Shown one piece after another: positions 6,011-27,084 of a stretch of DNA of 64,000 nt (positions are counted from its first letter, which is position 1; each line of letters begins with the position of its first letter). The position numbers and the translations under genes were made by a program. The notes under the pieces were generated by a model. That model did not search any database. It saw only the letters and a program-made list of their open reading frames with translations, and was not told the origin of the DNA. Source of the stretch: Escherichia coli (lineage in GTDB: Bacteria > Pseudomonadota > Gammaproteobacteria > Enterobacterales > Enterobacteriaceae); assembly GCF_003790525.1 (NCBI RefSeq), contig NZ_CP033635.1, one strand, 5' to 3'.

Positions 6011-7987
6011 ATGTCTGACGACATGTCTATGGGTTTGCCTTCGTCAGCGGGCGAACACGGTGTACTACGCTCCATGCAGGAGGTTGCAATGAGCTCCCAG
6101 GAAGCCAGCAAGATGCTGCGTACTTACAATATTGCCTGGTGGGGCAATAACTACTATGACGTTAACGAGCTGGGCCACATTAGCGTGTGCCCGGACCCGG
6201 ACGTCCCGGAAGCTCGCGTCGATCTCGCGCAGTTAGTGAAAACTCGCGAAGCACAGGGTCAGCGTCTGCCTGCACTGTTCTGTTTCCCACAGATCCTGCA
6301 GCACCGTTTGCGTTCCATTAACGCCGCGTTCAAACGTGCGCGGGAATCCTACGGCTATAACGGCGATTACTTCCTTGTTTATCCGATCAAAGTTAACCAG
6401 CACCGTCGCGTGATTGAGTCCCTGATTCATTCGGGCGAACCGCTGGGCCTGGAAGCCGGTTCCAAAGCGGAGTTGATGGCGGTGTTGGCACATGCTGGCA
6501 TGACCCGTAGCGTCATCGTCTGCAACGGTTATAAGGACCGCGAATATATCCGCCTGGCATTAATTGGCGAGAAGATGGGCCACAAGGTCTATCTGGTCAT
6601 TGAGAAGATGTCAGAAATTGCCATTGTGCTGGATGAAGCAGAACGTCTGAATGTCGTTCCTCGTCTGGGCGTGCGTGCACGTCTGGCTTCGCAGGGCTCG
6701 GGTAAATGGCAGTCCTCCGGCGGGGAAAAATCGAAGTTCGGCCTGGCGGCGACTCAGGTACTGCAACTGGTTGAAACGCTGCGTGAAGCCGGGCGTCTCG
6801 ACAGCCTGCAACTGCTGCACTTCCACCTCGGTTCGCAGATGGCGAATATTCGCGATATCGCGACAGGCGTTCGTGAATCCGCGCGTTTCTATGTGGAACT
6901 GCACAAGCTGGGCGTCAATATTCAGTGCTTCGACGTCGGCGGCGGTCTGGGCGTGGACTATGAAGGCACCCGTTCGCAGTCCGACTGTTCGGTGAACTAC
7001 GGCCTCAATGAATACGCCAACAACATCATCTGGGCGATTGGTGATGCGTGTGAAGAAAATGGTCTGCCACATCCGACAGTAATCACCGAGTCGGGTCGTG
7101 CGGTGACTGCGCATCACACCGTGCTGGTGTCAAATATCATCGGCGTGGAACGTAACGAATACACGGTGCCGACTGCGCCTGCAGAAGACGCACCGCGCGC
7201 ATTGCAAAGCATGTGGGAAACCTGGCAGGAGATGCACGAACCGGGAACTCGCCGTTCTCTGCGTGAATGGTTACACGACAGCCAGATGGATCTGCACGAT
7301 ATTCATATCGGCTACTCTTCCGGCACCTTTAGCCTGCAAGAACGCGCATGGGCTGAGCAGCTTTATTTGAGCATGTGCCATGAAGTGCAAAAGCAGCTGG
7401 ATCCGCAAAACCGTGCTCATCGTCCGATTATCGACGAGCTGCAGGAACGTATGGCGGACAAAATGTACGTCAACTTCTCGCTGTTCCAGTCGATGCCGGA
7501 TGCGTGGGGGATCGACCAGTTGTTCCCGGTTCTGCCGCTGGAAGGGTTGGATCAAGTGCCGGAACGCCGCGCTGTGCTGCTGGATATTACCTGTGACTCT
7601 GACGGTGCTATTGATCACTATATTGATGGTGATGGTATTGCCACGACAATGCCAATGCCGGAGTACGATCCAGAGAATCCGCCGATGCTCGGTTTCTTCA
7701 TGGTCGGCGCATATCAGGAGATCCTCGGCAACATGCACAACCTGTTCGGTGATACCGAAGCGGTTGACGTGTTCGTCTTCCCTGACGGCAGCGTAGAAGT
7801 AGAACTGTCTGACGAAGGCGATACCGTGGCGGATATGCTGCAATATGTACAGCTCGATCCGAAAACGTTGTTAACCCAGTTCCGTGATCAAGTGAAGAAA
7901 ACCGATCTTGATGCTGAACTGCAACAACAGTTCCTTGAAGAGTTCGAGGCAGGTTTGTACGGTTATACCTATCTTGAAGATGAATAA
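6011..7987 (+). CDS. speA: biosynthetic arginine decarboxylase
   Basis: ORF 5999..7987; [45 protein letters not shown] matches SpeA; ATG at 6011. Confidence 0.95.
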
Positions 7988-19229: not shown

Positions 19230-20191
19230 TGTCCCTGGCGTGGCCATTATTTCGCGTTACGGAACAGGCAGCGTTGGCTGCCTGGCCGCAAATCGGATGT
19301 GGCGACAAAAATAAAATTGATGGCCTGGCGGTCACCGCGATGCGCCAGGCATTAAACGACGTCGCTTTTCGTGGGCGAGTGGTTATCGGCGAGGGAGAGA
19401 TTGACCATGCGCCGATGCTGTGGATTGGCGAAGAGGTGGGCAAAGGCGATGGGCCAGAAGTCGATATCGCGGTTGATCCGATTGAAGGCACCAGGATGGT
19501 GGCGATGGGGCAGAGCAATGCGCTGGCAGTCATGGCCTTCGCCCCACGAGGCAGCCTGCTACACGCTCCCGATATGTATATGAAAAAACTGGTTGTTAAT
19601 CGGCTGGCGGCGGGCGCGATTGATCTGTCTTTGCCACTGGTGGACAACCTGCGCAACGTGGCGAAAGCGTTAGGCAAACCGCTGGACAAGCTGCGCATGG
19701 TTACGCTGGATAAACCGCGCCTGAGTGCCGCGATTGAAGAAGCAACACAGCTGGGCGTGAAGGTTTTCGCTCTGCCGGATGGCGATGTCGCCGCCAGCGT
19801 GCTGACCTGCTGGCAGGATAATCCTTACGATGTGATGTACACCATCGGCGGTGCGCCAGAAGGCGTGATTTCTGCCTGTGCCGTTAAAGCATTAGGCGGG
19901 GATATGCAGGCCGAGCTGATTGACTTTTGTCAGGCTAAAGGGGATTACACGGAAAATCGGCAGATTGCAGAGCAGGAGCGCAAGCGTTGCAAGGCAATGG
20001 GCGTTGACGTTAACCGTGTGTACTCGCTCGATGAACTGGTGAGGGGGAACGATATCCTCTTTAGCGCTACGGGCGTGACGGGTGGCGAGTTGGTGAACGG
20101 TATCCAACAGACGGCGAATGGGGTGCGGACGCAGACATTACTGATCGGCGGCGCGGACCAAACGTGTAATATAATAGACTCCCTGCATTGA
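19226..20191 (+). CDS. yggF: class II fructose-1,6-bisphosphatase (GlpX-like)
   Basis: 321-aa ORF with GlpX-like motifs; start overlaps yggP stop. Confidence 0.85.
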   Translation: MMSLAWPLFRVTEQAALAAWPQIGCGDKNKIDGLAVTAMRQALNDVAFRGRVVIGEGEIDHAPMLWIGEEVGKGDGPEVDIAVDPIEGTRMVAMGQSNALAVMAFAPRGSLLHAPDMYMKKLVVNRLAAGAIDLSLPLVDNLRNVAKALGKPLDKLRMVTLDKPRLSAAIEEATQLGVKVFALPDGDVAASVLTCWQDNPYDVMYTIGGAPEGVISACAVKALGGDMQAELIDFCQAKGDYTENRQIAEQERKRCKAMGVDVNRVYSLDELVRGNDILFSATGVTGGELVNGIQQTANGVRTQTLLIGGADQTCNIIDSLH

Positions 20192-20212
20192 TGGTGATCT
20201 ATCGGAAGACGA

Positions 20213-20722
20213 ATGGCGACGCTGACAGAAGATGATGTGCTTGAGCAACTGGATGCACAGGACAATTTATTTTCATTTATGAAAACTGCGCATTCTATTT
20301 TGCTCCAGGGGATACGCCAGTTTCTGCCGTCGCTGTTTGTCGATAACGATGAAGAGATCGTCGAATATGCAGTGAAGCCGTTACTCGCCCAAAGCGGCCC
20401 GCTTGACGATATTGATGTTGCGCTGCGTTTGATTTATGCGCTGGGGAAAATGGATAAATGGCTGTACGCCGATATCACGCATTTTTCCCAGTTCTGGCAT
20501 TACCTGAACGAACAGGATGAAATGCCCGGATTTGCCGATGACATGACCTGGGATTTTATCAGCAACGTCAATAGTATAACCCGCAATGCGACGCTCTATG
20601 ACGCATTGAAAGCGATGAAGTTCGCCGATTTCGCCGTCTGGTCAGAGGCGCGTTTTAGCGGGATGGTCAAAACGGCGCTGACGCTGGCAGTAACGACCAC
20701 CTTAAAGGAATTAACGCCGTGA
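20213..20722 (+). CDS. yggD: MtlR-like regulator/fumarase E family protein
   Basis: 169-aa ORF MATLTEDDVLEQLDAQDNLFSFMKTAHSILLQG... matches YggD. Confidence 0.8.
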   Translation: MATLTEDDVLEQLDAQDNLFSFMKTAHSILLQGIRQFLPSLFVDNDEEIVEYAVKPLLAQSGPLDDIDVALRLIYALGKMDKWLYADITHFSQFWHYLNEQDEMPGFADDMTWDFISNVNSITRNATLYDALKAMKFADFAVWSEARFSGMVKTALTLAVTTTLKELTP

Positions 20723-21432
20723 AAATTGAATTAACGGTGAATGGGCTGAAGATACAGGCACAGTACCAGAACGAAGAGATTGAAAATGTACATAAACCGT
20801 TGCTGCACATGTTGGCGGCCTTACAGACGGTAAATCCGCAGCGGCGTACGGTGGTTTTTCTTTGCGCTCCGCCGGGGACGGGTAAATCTACCCTAACCAC
20901 CTTCTGGGAATATATCGCGCAACAAGACCCGGAACTGCCCGCTATTCAGACGCTACCGATGGATGGTTTTCATCATTACAATAGCTGGCTGGATGCGCAT
21001 CAATTGCGCCCCTTCAAAGGCGCACCAGAGACATTTGACGTTGCGAAACTGGCGGAAAATCTGCGCCAGGTCGTGGAAGGGGATTGTACGTGGCCGCAGT
21101 ACGATCGACAAAAGCATGATCCTGTTGAAGATGCGTTGCACGTTACCGCACCACTCGTCATCGTCGAAGGAAACTGGTTGTTGCTGGACGACGAGAAGTG
21201 GCGCCAGCTTGCGCAATTTTGTGATTTCTCGATCTTTATCAAAGCTCCCGCATCTGCGTTGCGGGAGCGTCTGGTGGGGCGCAAGCTGGCGGGAGGGTTA
21301 TCGCTGGCAGACGCAGAAGCCTTTTATGACCGTACCGACGGGCCGAATGTTCGCCGGGTGCTGGAAGAGAGTCTGCCTGCAAATTTGACCTTAATGATGA
21401 CCGCTACGGGTGAATATCGTCTGATGGATTAA
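20719..21432 (+). CDS. yggC: P-loop kinase (uridine kinase/PRK-like)
   Basis: 237-aa ORF, GTG start overlapping yggD stop; Walker A APPGTGKST. Confidence 0.8.
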   Translation: MKIELTVNGLKIQAQYQNEEIENVHKPLLHMLAALQTVNPQRRTVVFLCAPPGTGKSTLTTFWEYIAQQDPELPAIQTLPMDGFHHYNSWLDAHQLRPFKGAPETFDVAKLAENLRQVVEGDCTWPQYDRQKHDPVEDALHVTAPLVIVEGNWLLLDDEKWRQLAQFCDFSIFIKAPASALRERLVGRKLAGGLSLADAEAFYDRTDGPNVRRVLEESLPANLTLMMTATGEYRLMD

Positions 21433-22081
21433 CGTTCCTGATTACACCATCTTCCAGTCGCACCACACGAGAGAAATGACGCCGGGTAAATGCGGCGTCA
21501 TGACTGATTGCTACGACGCTCGTGCCTCGCTGGCGGCACTTTTCCAGCCAACTTTCAAACACGCTCATCCAATTTTCGTCAAAATCCCGACTCGGCTCGT
21601 CCAGCAGCAATAGCGGCGGAGAGAGTGCTTCCAGGCAGGCGACGGCGACCATCCGTCGCTGCGCACTATGCAGATCCAGCGGATGCGCGCTGGCAGTGTC
21701 TGCTAACTGACAGCATTGCAGGGCAGCATTGGTACGTTGAGTGATTTCATCCGCCGGGCATTTTTGCAGTTTCAAACCAAATGCGATCTCGTCAGCGACG
21801 GTGCTGTGAAAAAGCTGGTTTTCCGCTTCCTGAAACAGTACGCCAATCTTTGCCGCGCGCTGGCGGTTTTTCAGGTTTTTCATCGCCTGTTGTTGCAGCA
21901 TAACCGTACCGGCTGTGGGCGTAAGAAGACCTGCCATTACTCGTAACAGCGTCGATTTTCCCGCGCCATTGTCGCCGGTCAGCGCCAACCATTCACCTTG
22001 TTTGAGTTGCAGAGAAATGTCGCAAAGACAATCCGTTGCCGCGTCAGGCCAGCGATAAGTTATCTGATTTAACGTTAACAT
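21404..22081 (-). CDS. ABC-type ATPase, ECF-transporter energizing subunit with degenerate signature motif (EcfA'-like)
   Basis: Walker A GDNGAGKST, Walker B LLLLDEPSRDFD, H-loop ISHD, but signature region reads LHSAQRR instead of LSGGQ; ATG 22081 overlaps upstream ATPase stop (ATGTTAA). Confidence 0.75.
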   Translation of the reverse strand: MLTLNQITYRWPDAATDCLCDISLQLKQGEWLALTGDNGAGKSTLLRVMAGLLTPTAGTVMLQQQAMKNLKNRQRAAKIGVLFQEAENQLFHSTVADEIAFGLKLQKCPADEITQRTNAALQCCQLADTASAHPLDLHSAQRRMVAVACLEALSPPLLLLDEPSRDFDENWMSVFESWLEKCRQRGTSVVAISHDAAFTRRHFSRVVRLEDGVIRNVNPSDDIHP

Positions 22082-22752
22082 AGTGGCTGGAGCGCTCCGT
22101 TTTGCAATTGCCACGCTTGCTGGCAGTAGTTCAGGAAAGGTGTACGATGACGTTCAAAAAGAATAATCAGCGAACCACGTTCAAGCGCCCAGTGTTGTAA
22201 GCGCTGCAACAGCATTTCGCAGGCCTGCGGCGTCAGGCGGCTAAAGGCTTCATCAAGAATTAAGAGCTTTGGCTGCATCGCGATGGCGCAGGCGATGACC
22301 ACACGCTGTGTCTCTCCACCGGAGAGTGTTGCCGGGTGACGATGGCGCAACGGCTGGCACTCGGTCAGAGTCAGGGCGGCATCAATCCGCGCCATAATCT
22401 CCTCTTCAGCAAGACACAGATTTTCTGGCCCAAAGGCAACTTTTTCTTCCACGCTAAAGGTACAGCCGGAGAGCTGCAAATAGGGCGATTGCTGAACGAG
22501 CTGGATGGTGGCGGATTGTTCATTAAGCGGGATATGCCCAATGGGCGTACCGAGAAGCGTCCCCGTGCCGGTTATCTCTCCTGGCAGAAAGTCCGGATAC
22601 CAGCCCGCCATCAGCTGTGCCAGCGTACTTTTGCCACTGCCGTTGTCACCAAAGATGGCGACCATCCCCGGTTTGACATAGTGAAAGTCATAACAGAACG
22701 GAGGATGCGTTGAGTGTGTCGGGCAATAGCGAAACTGTTCTAACGTAACCAT
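22075..22752 (-). CDS. ABC-type ATPase, ECF-transporter energizing subunit (EcfA-like)
   Basis: Walker A GDNGSGKST, canonical signature LSGGETQR, Walker B LLILDEA; start could be 22758 or 22752. Confidence 0.75.
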   Translation of the reverse strand: MVTLEQFRYCPTHSTHPPFCYDFHYVKPGMVAIFGDNGSGKSTLAQLMAGWYPDFLPGEITGTGTLLGTPIGHIPLNEQSATIQLVQQSPYLQLSGCTFSVEEKVAFGPENLCLAEEEIMARIDAALTLTECQPLRHRHPATLSGGETQRVVIACAIAMQPKLLILDEAFSRLTPQACEMLLQRLQHWALERGSLIILFERHRTPFLNYCQQAWQLQNGALQPLC

Positions 22753-23447
22753 ATCCACGCTCCGAATTCAGCCAGCATTAGCAAGATCATGGCGTAACGT
22801 GCTACGCGTTGTAGGGTGCTATCGGCTGGTGCCCATAACGTAGTGCGCCTATTGTTGATTCGAAATGCCCGCATATCCAGCGCCGCACCACGGACAGCCA
22901 GATCGTTAAGCGCATTGTGTGTTAGCGGAATAATTAGCGCGGGCATCGCGCGTAAACGCTGATACCAGCCTTCATCAAGCGGCACGCCGCGGGCGCGCTG
23001 CGCTTCATGAATAATCGCTAATTGCCGTTTTAACTGCTCAACGACCAACAACGGCCCGGCGAACAGATAAGCGACGCCCGGCGGCAGGCGAGAAGCAAAC
23101 AAAGCGCGGATAAAACGTTGCACTGGGACGTACTGCATCCACAACTGCGAGGTTGAAACAATCGCCAGAATCCGCAACCAGAGCGTAATAGCATGCGTCC
23201 ACCGTTCTGGCGAGCGTGGCGTGCCGCTTAGCCATTCTATCAGCCAGCCACCGTGTACCAGCCACAGTCCAGCCCCCAGCGAGAACATCAGCCAGACGAC
23301 ATATTTTGCCCGCCGCCGCGTGGCCTTTAGCGCAATAAGGCAGAAAAAGGTCGCCGCGCTATAGACTGGCAATATTGTCTGTGTGGGCAGGATAAGCGTG
23401 GTGTAGGCCGCCAGCGCCCACAGCGTTAATGAGGTAAACGGATGCAT
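22740..23447 (-). CDS. ECF transporter transmembrane T component (CbiQ/EcfT-like)
   Basis: Polytopic 235-aa protein with Ala-Arg-Gly-type coupling motifs (EAQRARGV; LAVRGAALD); ATG directly follows stop of upstream gene. Confidence 0.65.
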   Translation of the reverse strand: MHPFTSLTLWALAAYTTLILPTQTILPVYSAATFFCLIALKATRRRAKYVVWLMFSLGAGLWLVHGGWLIEWLSGTPRSPERWTHAITLWLRILAIVSTSQLWMQYVPVQRFIRALFASRLPPGVAYLFAGPLLVVEQLKRQLAIIHEAQRARGVPLDEGWYQRLRAMPALIIPLTHNALNDLAVRGAALDMRAFRINNRRTTLWAPADSTLQRVARYAMILLMLAEFGAWIWLR

Positions 23448-24026
23448 TTAGCGCACGGCTGCCATTGCCGGAAAATGGCGCGTGGTGCGAATCGGCAGCT
23501 GACGCAGTAAAAGCCAGACAATCACCGCTGTAAGAATTTTATCGACCAGGTTTGCGCCTATCACCGTAATCGCCACCGACTCCACCAGGTTTTGCCCCAT
23601 AGAGTGCATCCAGGCAACGAACAAATCGGCTCCGCTACCGGTGACACCGCCGAACAGCGCAGTACGCAGCGGTACAGCGACGACCGTTACCGCAAGCGTA
23701 ATAATCACGCCGCTGACAACGACTTTTGGCAGGGTGCGGAACCAACCCGCTCGCGCCAGCCAACCGGCGACCAGGCCGATGACCATCGCCACGGGCGCAA
23801 ATGCGGCGGCGATCGGGTCGGTCAGCAATCCCCAGAGTAAATTGGTCAGTAAGCCGGTCAGCATCCCGATCACCGGACCAAGCAGTACCGCGCTAATAAG
23901 TGTGCCGACGGAGTCGAGAAATATAGGTAATTTGACCATGCTGGCCAGTTGCCCGCCGATCATATTGATGGCGATAGATATAACGATCAACACCAGCGCC
24001 TGACTGGAAAAGTGGCGACGCGCCAT
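23448..24026 (-). CDS. small integral membrane protein, putative ECF substrate-capture S component
   Basis: About 190 aa, 5-6 predicted TM helices, sits first in transporter gene order; start chosen at MARRHFSSQ (ORF extends to 24125). Confidence 0.55.
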   Translation of the reverse strand: MARRHFSSQALVLIVISIAINMIGGQLASMVKLPIFLDSVGTLISAVLLGPVIGMLTGLLTNLLWGLLTDPIAAAFAPVAMVIGLVAGWLARAGWFRTLPKVVVSGVIITLAVTVVAVPLRTALFGGVTGSGADLFVAWMHSMGQNLVESVAITVIGANLVDKILTAVIVWLLLRQLPIRTTRHFPAMAAVR

Positions 24027-24048
24027 AAGAAAACCTCTCTGAAAATAG

Positions 24049-24480
24049 TTAGTTAACGGGGGAAATATGCAACTCGTCGTAACCAGAAAGCGCGCAAGGC
24101 TGGCGGCTAAACGCCAGTTCCTCAAGGCAGCCGATCACCAGTTCAAGCGTGGTCCGCACGGTACAGCCGGGCATCATATGACCGCCAAGCATCGTGCCGT
24201 GTGGATCGGAAACGCAGAGATGAAGATGTTCACCACTCTGTTCCAGCGTGCCGTTCAATGCGATGACTTCGAACTTACCGCTTAGTAGGGCAGTGTTTTC
24301 TTGCCCGGCATAGCGTAAGGCGACGTCAGTCAGACTGCCGGTACAACCTGCAATCCACGCGGCGTGAAGTTGTTGTTGCTGCGCGAAGGCGCGTAATTGG
24401 GAGAGAACTTCCTGCCCGGGGAGCAGGCGCAGCGCGTAAAAACGTGCGGAGGAAGAATATGGGTAGGGCAATGTCATCAT
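24049..24480 (-). CDS. DUF296/PPC-domain-like protein (143 aa) of unknown function, first gene of the cluster
   Basis: 143-aa ORF; family assignment from recollection of PPC-domain proteins, not verified. Confidence 0.5.
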   Translation of the reverse strand: MMTLPYPYSSSARFYALRLLPGQEVLSQLRAFAQQQQLHAAWIAGCTGSLTDVALRYAGQENTALLSGKFEVIALNGTLEQSGEHLHLCVSDPHGTMLGGHMMPGCTVRTTLELVIGCLEELAFSRQPCALSGYDELHISPVN

Positions 24481-24608
24481 TGGAGTACTCCGAAACTCGG
24501 ACGTATTGCGGATAATATCGACGCTGCATCAGTCATATTCTGATATAAGTCAGGGTTTGTGACGGCACAACGAAAAGATTTTGCTACGCTTATTCGTGAT
24601 TCTGCAAA

Positions 24609-24624
24609 GTGGAATAAATTCCAC
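24609..24624. promoter_or_regulatory. inverted repeat GTGGAA-N4-TTCCAC in divergent intergenic region, with a further copy of the motif at 24690..24699
   Basis: gtggaataaattccac at 24609..24624; ttttattccac at 24689..24699 is the same motif inverted; lies between the DUF296/ECF cluster and epd. Confidence 0.3.
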
Positions 24625-24851
24625 AGGGGCGGGGCTGAAAACGTGACGTAAGTCAGATAATTGTCTTCTTTGACTGGACAATCATTCCTTTTATTCCACG
24701 TTTCGCTTATCCTAGCTGAAGCGTTTCAGTCGATTAAATGTTCGACAATTAACCAATCAGTCGCAGTTTGCGACAGGTAAGGTTTCCCCGGACGATTTGC
24801 TGGATTACTCTGTCTGGCAAATTTGCTCAGGGAAAACCTTGCAGGAGATCT

Positions 24852-25871
24852 ATGACCGTACGCGTAGCGATAAATGGCTTCGGTCGCATCGGGCGTAATG
24901 TGGTTCGTGCTTTGTATGAATCCGGACGCCGGGCGGAAATTACCGTGGTGGCAATCAACGAACTGGCGGATGCTGCGGGCATGGCGCATTTGTTGAAATA
25001 TGACACCAGCCATGGCCGTTTTGCATGGGAAGTACGACAGGAACGCGATCAACTTTTTGTTGGTGATGACGCCATCCGCGTATTGCATGAACGTTCACTG
25101 CAATCGCTCCCCTGGCGTGAACTTGGCGTTGATGTAGTCCTCGACTGCACCGGCGTATATGGCTCCCGTGAGCATGGCGAAGCGCATATTGCCGCCGGGG
25201 CCAAAAAAGTGCTCTTTTCACATCCTGGCAGTAACGATCTCGACGCGACCGTTGTTTACGGCGTCAATCAGGATCAACTTCGTGCGGAACACCGCATCGT
25301 TTCTAACGCTTCCTGTACCACGAATTGCATAATTCCCGTCATCAAATTGTTAGATGATGCGTACGGTATTGAGTCCGGCACTGTGACCACAATTCACTCC
25401 GCCATGCACGATCAACAGGTTATTGATGCATACCATCCTGACCTGCGTCGCACTCGGGCAGCCAGCCAGTCGATCATTCCGGTCGATACTAAACTGGCCG
25501 CCGGTATCACACGATTTTTTCCGCAATTTAACGATCGCTTTGAAGCGATTGCGGTACGTGTGCCAACCATAAATGTGACGGCAATCGATTTAAGCGTGAC
25601 GGTGAAGAAACCTGTAAAAGCCAATGAAGTCAACCTGTTGCTGCAAAAAGCAGCACAAGGTGCATTTCATGGTATAGTTGACTATACGGAATTGCCGTTG
25701 GTCTCTGTAGATTTTAACCACGATCCGCACAGTGCCATTGTCGATGGCACCCAAACCCGGGTCAGTGGCGCACACCTGATCAAAACGTTGGTCTGGTGCG
25801 ATAACGAATGGGGCTTTGCTAACCGAATGCTCGACACGACGTTAGCTATGGCTACTGTTGCTTTCAGGTAA
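24852..25871 (+). CDS. epd: D-erythrose-4-phosphate dehydrogenase
   Basis: ORF 24768..25871; [37 protein letters not shown] matches Epd (GapB). Confidence 0.95.
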
Positions 25872-25920
25872 GACGCAAGCAGCGTCTGCAAAACTTTTAG
25901 AATCAACGAGAGGATTCACC

Positions 25921-27084
25921 ATGTCTGTAATTAAGATGACCGATCTGGATCTTGCTGGGAAACGTGTATTTATCCGTGCGGATCTGAACGTACCAGTAAA
26001 AGACGGGAAAGTAACCAGCGATGCGCGTATCCGTGCTTCTCTGCCGACCATCGAACTGGCCCTGAAACAAGGCGCAAAAGTGATGGTAACTTCCCACCTG
26101 GGTCGTCCTACCGAAGGCGAGTACAACGAAGAATTCTCTCTGCTGCCGGTTGTTAACTACCTGAAAGACAAACTGTCTAACCCGGTTCGTCTGGTTAAAG
26201 ATTACCTCGACGGCGTTGACGTTGCTGAAGGTGAACTGGTTGTTCTGGAAAACGTTCGCTTCAACAAAGGCGAGAAGAAAGACGACGAAACCCTGTCCAA
26301 AAAATACGCTGCACTGTGTGACGTGTTCGTAATGGACGCATTCGGTACTGCTCACCGCGCGCAGGCTTCTACTCACGGTATCGGTAAATTCGCTGACGTT
26401 GCGTGCGCAGGCCCGCTGCTGGCAGCTGAACTGGACGCGCTGGGTAAAGCACTGAAAGAACCTGCTCGCCCGATGGTGGCTATCGTTGGTGGTTCTAAAG
26501 TATCTACCAAACTGACCGTTCTGGACTCCCTGTCTAAAATCGCTGACCAGCTGATTGTTGGTGGTGGTATCGCTAACACCTTTATTGCGGCACAAGGCCA
26601 CGATGTGGGTAAATCCCTGTACGAAGCTGATCTGGTTGACGAAGCAAAACGTCTGCTGACCACCTGCAACATCCCGGTTCCGTCTGATGTTCGTGTAGCA
26701 ACTGAGTTCTCTGAAACTGCACCGGCTACCCTGAAATCTGTTAACGATGTGAAAGCTGACGAGCAGATCCTGGATATCGGTGATGCTTCCGCTCAGGAAC
26801 TGGCTGAAATCCTGAAGAATGCGAAAACCATTTTGTGGAACGGTCCGGTTGGCGTGTTCGAATTCCCGAACTTCCGCAAAGGTACTGAAATCGTGGCTAA
26901 CGCTATCGCAGACAGCGAAGCGTTCTCCATCGCTGGCGGCGGCGACACTCTGGCAGCAATCGACCTGTTCGGCATTGCTGACAAAATCTCCTACATCTCC
27001 ACTGGCGGCGGCGCATTCCTCGAATTCGTGGAAGGTAAAGTACTGCCTGCAGTAGCGATGCTCGAAGAGCGCGCTAAGAAGTAA
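25921..27084 (+). CDS. pgk: phosphoglycerate kinase
   Basis: ORF 25858..27084; [25 protein letters not shown] matches Pgk. Confidence 0.95.

Follow-up and report, generated by a model that had tools for sequence, protein, structure and literature searches.

The 64,000-nucleotide stretch of the Escherichia coli chromosome analysed here (contig NZ_CP033635.1 of assembly GCF_003790525.1; hereafter the window) carries a five-gene cassette that appears to encode an energy-coupling factor (ECF) importer. In order of transcription, the genes encode a PCC/PPC (PF03479, DUF296) protein, a substrate-capture (S) component, a transmembrane coupling (T) component and two ATP-binding cassette (ABC) ATPases, which we call A1 (proximal) and A2 (distal). 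The five open reading frames (ORFs) are contiguous on one strand and abut or overlap, and the stop codon of A1 and the ATG of A2 overlap in ATGTTAA; this packing indicates one operon with translational coupling of the two ATPases. RefSeq annotates exactly these A1 and A2 ORFs under the generic product name 'ABC transporter ATP-binding protein'. The present study concerns the unequal ATP sites of this pair. Conservation was scored over 80 loci, one genome per species, collected by scanning with an S-component alignment and drawn from Enterobacterales, Aeromonas, Paracoccus, Crenobacter, Desulfobulbaceae, Synergistaceae and Chloroflexi; the column counts given below and in Table 1 refer to 54 non-redundant A1 and 54 non-redundant A2 sequences.

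Table 1 Coordinates of the ECF cassette, its ATPase motifs and its flanking genes in the window.
Feature	Position	Strand	Evidence
Accessory cassette, whole	21404..24578		blastn of cassette-less E. coli BS-04 against the window
A2, distal ABC ATPase, 225 aa	21404..22081	-	Pfam ABC_tran 2.9e-27; RefSeq WP_000956898.1; AlphaFold2 pLDDT 95
A2 H-loop S193-H194-D195	21497..21505	-	H194, D195 54/54
A2 Walker B LLLLDEP, residues 157-163, catalytic Glu162	21593..21613	-	D161, E162 54/54
A2 signature position LHSAQRR, residues 137-143 (canonical LSGGQxQR)	21653..21673	-	Alignments and column counts
A2 Walker A GDNGAGKST, residues 36-44	21950..21976	-	GxNGxGK 54/54
A1, proximal ABC ATPase, 225 aa	22075..22752	-	Pfam ABC_tran 1.2e-21; RefSeq WP_024175771.1; AlphaFold2 pLDDT 95.6
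A1 H-loop region F199-E200-R201-H202	22147..22158	-	Arg201 in switch-His column, ungapped family alignment
A1 signature LSGGETQR, residues 143-150	22303..22326	-	L, S, G, G, Q149 54/54
A1 Walker A GDNGSGKST, residues 35-43	22624..22650	-	G40, K41 54/54; G38 43/54
ECF T (transmembrane coupling) component, 235 aa	22740..23447	-	RefSeq name; Pfam CbiQ 22.4 bits
ECF S (substrate-capture) component, 192 aa	23448..24026	-	Pfam ECF_trnsprt 34.9 bits
PCC/PPC (PF03479, DUF296) protein, first gene of the cassette	24049..24480	-	Pfam 2.4e-27
yggC-like kinase gene, flanking	20719-21432	+
epd, flanking	~24852-25871 (raw ORF start 24768)	+	RefSeq coding sequence

A2 has intact Walker A, Walker B and H-loop motifs, a Q-loop glutamine (Q84) and a D-loop reading SRDFD, while the position of its ABC signature is occupied by LHSAQRR. 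The sequence-only reading of this stretch had described the Walker A/B motifs, the H-loop and the LHSAQRR segment of the downstream ATPase in these terms, and its placement of the signature was borne out by alignments of three kinds. In a phmmer comparison with both nucleotide-binding domains (NBDs) of ABCB4 and ABCB1, 'ldlhsaqrrmvava' of A2 is set opposite 'tqlsggqkqriaia'; a gap-free BLASTP alignment of the two cassette ATPases sets HPATLSGGETQRVVIAC of A1 opposite HPLDLHSAQRRMVAVAC of A2; and the family alignment made with MAFFT has LHSAQ in the signature column, opposite LSGGQ. Characterised EcfA proteins, with which comparison had been proposed, give the same result: LHAGQ of the Proteus penneri ortholog falls column-for-column on LSGGQ of Levilactobacillus (L.) brevis EcfA1 (4HUQ_B/9KYM_A) and of EcfA2 4MKI_B. 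The signature directly precedes a helix in all NBDs, and in the AlphaFold2 model of A2 L137-H138 stand directly before helix 139-153. Direct reading of the 225-aa sequence found no SGG elsewhere in A2. Both an LHSAQ segment lying off the signature position and a canonical signature elsewhere in the protein were thus looked for, and neither was found. LH[STA]AQ is kept in 113 of 120 close homologue clusters, and with such conservation the degenerate signature of A2 is not a chance variant. ECF ATPases also have a Q-helix motif after the Q-loop, in which an acidic residue pairs with the Arg following the signature (PMC6828968). Judged from sequence only, A2 has FQEAENQLF at this place (FQNPDDQ in relatives) and R142 following the signature in 53/54, and A1 has QQSPYLQL, without an acidic residue at the expected position.

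In A1, the canonical Walker A, LSGGETQR signature and Walker B ascribed to the upstream ATPase are all present, the last as LLILDEA with Glu168 kept. Its H-loop has a defect that the earlier reading did not mention, and A1 is only partly canonical in sequence. An ungapped family alignment, anchored on a conserved 'RG' and a beta-strand, sets L-F-E-R-H of A1 opposite A-I-S-H-D of A2 and so places Arg201 in the column of the switch histidine; in the AlphaFold2 model of A1, strand 195-200 ends just ahead of this residue. Column 201 holds Arg in 26, His in 10, Gln in 7 and Lys in 5 of the 54 A1 sequences. The neighbouring His202 was considered as the switch residue and is unlikely in that role as a family feature, since the ungapped alignment puts Arg201 there and column 202 is His in only 7/54, though it may act as such in E. 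coli A1 itself. The D-loop also deviates, reading SRLT rather than SxLD. Nucleotide binding by A1 is nevertheless plausible, because G40 and K41 of Walker A are retained. In an ABC dimer, each ATP is held by Walker A/B, the Q-loop and the H-loop of one NBD and by the signature of the other (PMC3971661, PMC10368641). Because ATP is sandwiched between opposing NBDs in this way, the H-loop defect of A1 and the signature defect of A2 would share one pocket, composed of the A1 P-loop and the A2 signature and apparently hit from both sides.

The same asymmetry is found throughout the family. Wherever both NBDs of a locus could be read, LSGG[EQ] is present in the first and missing from the second. 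The signature of the second NBD reads LH[STAVI][AG]Q in enterics, LN/LD-AGQ in Aeromonas, LNAAE in Synergistaceae, LGYSE in Desulfobulbaceae, and LGYSR or LPPAR in Chloroflexi. SGG is present in 54/54 A1 and 0/54 A2 sequences; residue by residue, the signature Ser, first Gly and second Gly are found in 2/54, 0/54 and 19/54 A2 sequences, whereas LSGG and Q149 of A1 are each 54/54. The other motifs of A2 are kept. Its Walker A GxNGxGK, Walker B Asp-Glu, D-loop Asp and H-loop His-Asp are all 54/54 and its Q-loop Gln is 53/54, and the 18 A2 columns that are invariant across phyla cover all the catalytic motifs. The corresponding values in A1 are 54/54 for the Walker A Lys, 43/54 for its fourth-position Gly, 48/54 for the Q-loop Gln (Q88), 53/54 for the Walker B Glu, 21/54 for the D-loop Asp and 10/54 for the switch His. 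The sole Walker B exception is in Aeromonas (A. finlandensis and A. sobria, loci L047 and L048), where A1 reads LLILDQA, a natural version of the E-to-Q change that is used experimentally to kill hydrolysis. Distant A1s have an altered Walker A, GxN[NE]xGK. It therefore appears that A1 keeps just what serves the pocket of A2, namely LSGG, and that A2 keeps the full catalytic set without a signature. Selection on a single catalytic pocket in an A1:A2 heterodimer predicts such complementary conservation, and homodimers or two active sites would hardly account for the pattern of these columns.

Gene fusions link the two ATPases in several lineages. A1-A2 fusions occur in the metagenome P0122, Paracoccus and Chloroflexi, and T-A1-A2 fusions in Synergistaceae and P0133, the latter forming a single polypeptide of ~650-930 aa in Synergistaceae and some metagenomes (fusion loci L005-L007, L050, L058, L059 and L062; L004, L055, L056, L071, L072, L076 and L077). 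The order is without exception A1-A2 or T-A1-A2. Both ATPases are under purifying selection. The ratio of nonsynonymous to synonymous substitution rates (dN/dS) is 0.07-0.16 for A1 and A2 in nearly all finite comparisons, with similar values for T, and ratios this low mean that A2 is not decaying. The outlier is A1 of Escherichia albertii (0.35), where the ORF is truncated; in strain NBRC 107761 (locus L009, ~7212-7736) this ORF is ~154 aa long and A2, T, S and PCC are intact; the truncation may reflect inactivation in this one strain or a fault of the assembly. More remote relatives were sampled as the 150 best 50%-identity cluster representatives by A2 similarity, of which 144 are fused two-NBD ATPases. 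Fused proteins dominate this ranking because their two domain scores add, and the sample, being chosen by likeness to A2, may be biased. In these 144, the signature is canonical in 131 first and 40 second NBDs, and the H-loop His is present in 105 first and 141 second NBDs; the polarity of degeneracy matches that of A1 and A2.

Both ATPases had also been described as short proteins without the long C-terminal extensions of EcfA, and NCBIfam coverage and Foldseek agree with this description. The NCBIfam model ECF_ATPase_2 is covered over positions 5-226 of 279, and the AlphaFold2 model of A2 ends in beta-strands at 205-216 followed by a disordered tail. The fold is that of a bare NBD: target-normalised TM-scores are ~0.88 to FtsE/LolD, which are of equal length, and 0.70-0.73 to EcfA/CbiO (265-285 aa). 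Short forms, ~225 aa for both subunits, are found in Escherichia, Citrobacter, Salmonella, Atlantibacter, Kluyvera and Buttiauxella. Proteus, Morganella, Providencia, Budvicia, Crenobacter, Desulfobulbaceae and Chloroflexi have long forms (A1 ~270-290 aa, A2 ~250-275 aa), and the Proteus tail aligns on the C-terminal helices of EcfA2 4MKI_B. As the relatives keep the extension (L033-L046 and L052-L085, versus the short L008-L032), the alignments indicate that Enterobacteriaceae sensu stricto lost ~45-55 C-terminal residues, corresponding to EcfA-type helices, from A1 and A2 alike. These helices help dimerisation and are mandatory in group II but optional in group I ECF transporters (PMC6828968), so the short length is not anomalous and fits a group I-type module. 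The long forms are degenerate as well. Degeneracy therefore predates truncation and was not caused by helix loss, but could have permitted it.

The remaining proteins of the cassette point to an ECF importer. The operon organisation, an S component and the coupling motifs of an ECF importer are all present. The S component matches PF12822 over residues 10-173 of 192 with 34.9 bits, above the gathering score of 30.7, and this is its only Pfam match at E<=0.01; no cassette protein matches the CbiM/CbiN Pfam families. Against NCBIfam NF045596, the CD3073-family putative ECF S components, it scores 135.6 bits, below the cut-off of 180. By these profile scores the S component is a relative of the CD3073 family rather than a member, and not a CbiM/NikM protein. 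A glycine-rich segment at S residues 127-134, G-V-T-G-S-G-A-D, is near-invariant, together with K32-L-P-x-F-L-D38, in 65 orthologs from several phyla, and this loop is a candidate substrate-binding or gating element. The T component, which RefSeq names 'energy-coupling factor transporter transmembrane component T', reaches 22.4 bits with PF02361 CbiQ, below the gathering score of 25, and has no NCBIfam match. Its two xRG motifs, A152-R153-G154 and V185-R186-G187, are highly conserved (R153 76/77, G154 76/77 and R186 75/77 orthologs). The EcfA1 and EcfA2 equivalog models (TIGR04520/TIGR04521) give A2 150.0 bits against a cut-off of 330 and 145.6 against 315, and give A1 119.5 against 315 and 104.9 against 330. 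Being far below these cut-offs and without the group II helices, A1 and A2 should not be filed as EcfA/EcfA'.

In most loci outside Chloroflexi, the top-scoring PCC match shares the strand of the S gene and is located ~1.0-1.5 kb upstream of it, and a PCC gene stands upstream of S in most proteobacterial and Synergistaceae loci. The PCC protein has conserved His85-x-His87 and His101 plus Glu113/Asp92, an arrangement that resembles a metal site, and it may serve as a regulator, a chaperone or an enzyme. Its Salmonella ortholog was solved by structural genomics (2HX0/2NMU) as a 'putative DNA-binding protein', and the literature search on DUF296/PPC returned plant AHL papers only. Clustering of flanking ORFs from ~65 loci showed that the conserved neighbourhood consists of PCC, S, T, A1 and A2, the remainder being genus-specific synteny, and it yielded no further conserved neighbour as a clue to the substrate. 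Many dedicated ECF operons have a riboswitch or other Rfam family upstream, unlike the cassette, for which an Rfam search at E<=1 over 20000-26000, including the intergenic region 24481-24767 divergent from epd, gave no riboswitch or RNA leader match. A promoter and terminator scan gave matches no more numerous than the shuffled expectation. In Salmonella, a sigma-54 site is listed for STM3072 from chromatin immunoprecipitation (PMC3844500), and the orthologous operon is transcribed and apparently activated under anaerobiosis (PMC11481890).

Within E. coli, the cassette is an accessory element present in 3330 of 5426 complete genomes and missing from 39%. Over 21300-24600, the window matches strain CM2 at 100% identity and a further 3309 complete genomes at 95-99%. 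In the cassette-less strain BS-04, blastn finds 51 bp in place of the whole cassette. The left boundary of the cassette is the last base of the A2 stop codon, within the 3' end of the convergent yggC-like gene, with which A2 overlaps by 29 bp (21404-21432). As the 51 bp in BS-04 are unrelated, the last ~10 codons of the kinase gene differ between cassette-plus and cassette-minus genomes, ending in TATGEYRLMD* in the window; the BS-04 copy of this gene is annotated as frameshifted.

We propose that A1 and A2 belong to a dedicated ECF importer of a group I-like kind and form an obligate heterodimer, in which one ATP site is catalytic and the other, degenerate one only binds ATP, and assign this reading a probability of roughly 0.8. 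A heterodimer of one consensus and one degenerate site had been predicted from the motifs of the two proteins, and the prediction is strongly supported by the complementary conservation, the A1-A2 and T-A1-A2 fusions and the purifying selection. By analogy with solved ECF modules and heterodimeric ABC exporters, we infer the following geometry and transport cycle. A1 and A2 would pair head-to-tail on the T component. Site 2 would be complete, with Walker A, Q-loop, Walker B (Glu162) and H-loop (His194) of A2 closed by LSGGE of A1. Site 1 would be degenerate, with Walker A/B of A1 closed by LHSAQ of A2, which lacks the Ser and Gly through which a signature contacts the gamma-phosphate, and with Arg201 in the switch-His column. 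This site probably binds ATP, because the Walker A Lys and Walker B Asp of A1 are invariant, and its hydrolysis would be slow or absent, a behaviour known from heterodimeric ABC exporters (PMC3971661). The S component would capture the substrate, and the two xRG coupling helices of T would occupy the grooves of A1 and A2. ATP binding would then close the heterodimer, push the coupling helices and release or reset S, and hydrolysis at the A2-centred site 2 would reopen the dimer at a cost of one ATP per cycle. A long-lived nucleotide at site 1 could help to keep the two subunits paired in forms that have no C-terminal helices.

Several points weigh against this proposal. A non-canonical signature alone is no proof of lost hydrolysis, and the conclusion was drawn from sequences and predicted monomer folds. 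E. coli A1 keeps the catalytic Glu168 and has H202 one residue past the switch column, where it might partly substitute for the missing histidine; HMMER, with gaps allowed, sets H202 opposite the canonical His. The D-loop Asp of A1 is replaced (SRLT), and as this loop reaches the consensus site, site 2 is not perfectly canonical either. In the group II module of Lactobacillus (L.) delbrueckii, E169Q or E'171Q each abolishes ATPase activity and transport (PMC10368641), and because that module needs both sites, a one-site ECF motor would depart from the characterised mechanism. The same observations would favour an ordinary two-site EcfA/EcfA' motor that tolerates LHSAQ and the A1 residue His202 as variants: E. 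coli A1 retains its Q-loop, its Walker A and Glu168 of Walker B, H202 adjoins the switch column and can be aligned to the canonical His, and characterised ECF modules require both sites (PMC10368641). We nevertheless regard two active sites as unlikely. H202 is confined to 7/54 A1 sequences, with Asn in its place in Citrobacter, Salmonella and Proteus. SGG is absent from all 54 A2 sequences, the Aeromonas A1 has exchanged its Walker B Glu for Gln, and many distant A1s have an altered Walker A. Selection has clearly been relaxed on precisely those residues that form one pocket, and has been kept up on the other pocket.

It is also conceivable, though improbable, that A1 and A2 are not partners, and that each forms homodimers or that only one serves the transporter, with some other function, such as regulation, for its neighbour. 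Group I transporters such as BioMNY do use ATPase homodimers (PMC6828968). A homodimer of A2, however, would contain two signature-less sites and one of A1 two sites without a switch His, and the complementary conservation makes sense for an A1:A2 pair only; the two genes are moreover translationally coupled and are fused in several lineages. Still less credible is erosion, in which A2 or the whole cassette would be a decaying, non-functional remnant and its signature the product of mutation in an accessory island. That 39% of complete E. coli genomes lack the cassette, and that E. albertii NBRC 107761 has an A1 ORF of 154 aa, would fit such decay. We reject it on the dN/dS of A2, ~0.1-0.16 against its Escherichia, Citrobacter, Salmonella and Budvicia orthologs, and on the 18 invariant A2 columns with their catalytic residues. 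The protein is also full-length (225 aa) in thousands of sequences, and the Salmonella operon is transcribed (PMC11481890).

Degenerate ATP sites figure centrally in the mechanism of ABC exporters such as CFTR, TAP and TM287/288. The description of ECF importers, however, is based on systems with two canonical sites, both of them required (PMC10368641). Our literature search found no report of a degenerate site in any ECF ATPase, although its coverage of subscription papers was partial and an earlier mention is possible. The asymmetric pair would represent a naturally occurring ECF family in which one site is crippled, present in the genetically tractable E. coli and Salmonella. With its natural variants (the Aeromonas E-to-Q exchange and the fused, long and short forms), the number of ATPs required by an ECF motor and the purpose of the second site could readily be tested. 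Attention is also drawn to a vitamin-type (ECF) transporter, uncharacterised and expressed under anaerobiosis, in ~60% of E. coli genomes. More tentatively, the cassette may represent a widespread ECF subclass with a single hydrolytic site, in which the degenerate pocket acts as a semi-permanent ATP latch between A1 and A2 and the PCC protein is a dedicated, cytoplasmic and probably metal-binding partner. If so, the latch could explain why Enterobacteriaceae discarded the C-terminal dimerisation helices of both subunits, and the two-site requirement of group II would not be general.

Among known systems, the ECF ATPases of the group II EcfA-EcfA'-EcfT modules (L. brevis 4HUQ/4RFS, L. delbrueckii 5JSZ/8BMS and T. 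maritima EcfA-A' 4HLU) are the best single-domain sequence and fold matches. The cassette shares with them two different ATPases, one T component with two Arg-bearing coupling helices and a membrane-embedded S component. Unlike them, it has its S, T and A genes in one dedicated operon together with PCC, lacks the C-terminal dimerisation helices, and has one degenerate signature and one degenerate H-loop. In the ATP-bound structure of the L. delbrueckii module, LSGGQ is engaged by both nucleotides, and both Walker B glutamates are required (PMC10368641). The short-ATPase transporters of group I (BioMNY and NikMNQO) and CbiMQO (5X3X) resemble the cassette in having a dedicated operon and an optional C-terminal extension (PMC6828968). 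CbiO (5X40/5X3X) and BioM (listed in PMC6828968), however, are each encoded by one ATPase gene and form a homodimer with two identical sites, whereas the cassette has two diverged genes, and its S component, with PF12822 as sole Pfam match, differs from the CbiM/NikM proteins of CbiMNQO/NikMNQO.

The orthologous operon of Salmonella Typhimurium, STM3071-STM3075 (locus L020), has the same five genes and also adjoins epd. A single passing mention of it was found in the literature, citing a thesis, with the label 'cobalt' and without reference to the asymmetry of the ATPases (PMC11481890); the family assignment of the S component lends this label no support. In the fused ECF ATPases of the YkoD type (YkoEDC), A1 would correspond to NBD1 and A2 to NBD2, a comparison made with the 144 fused relatives, in which this polarity of degeneracy is common; the paper on the YkoE structure does not discuss asymmetry, and the cassette differs in having split subunits. 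A further parallel is with degenerate-site ABC exporters (TM287/288, TAP1/2, CFTR, MRP1 and Rv1273c/72c), which likewise have non-identical NBDs with deviations in one composite pocket, formed by the H-loop of one NBD (in relatives also its Walker B/A) and the signature of the other. Such transporters are defined by deviations confined to a single composite site with the other site canonical (PMC3971661), a description that A1 and A2 fit, except that A1 has lost its D-loop Asp. The cassette differs in encoding an ECF importer with a toppling S component rather than a type IV exporter, in having its NBDs as separate soluble subunits, and in a more radically altered signature, LHSAQ, in which the Ser and both Gly are lost. 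On this sequence evidence, A1 and A2 appear to work like the consensus/degenerate NBD pairs of these exporters, outside that structural class.

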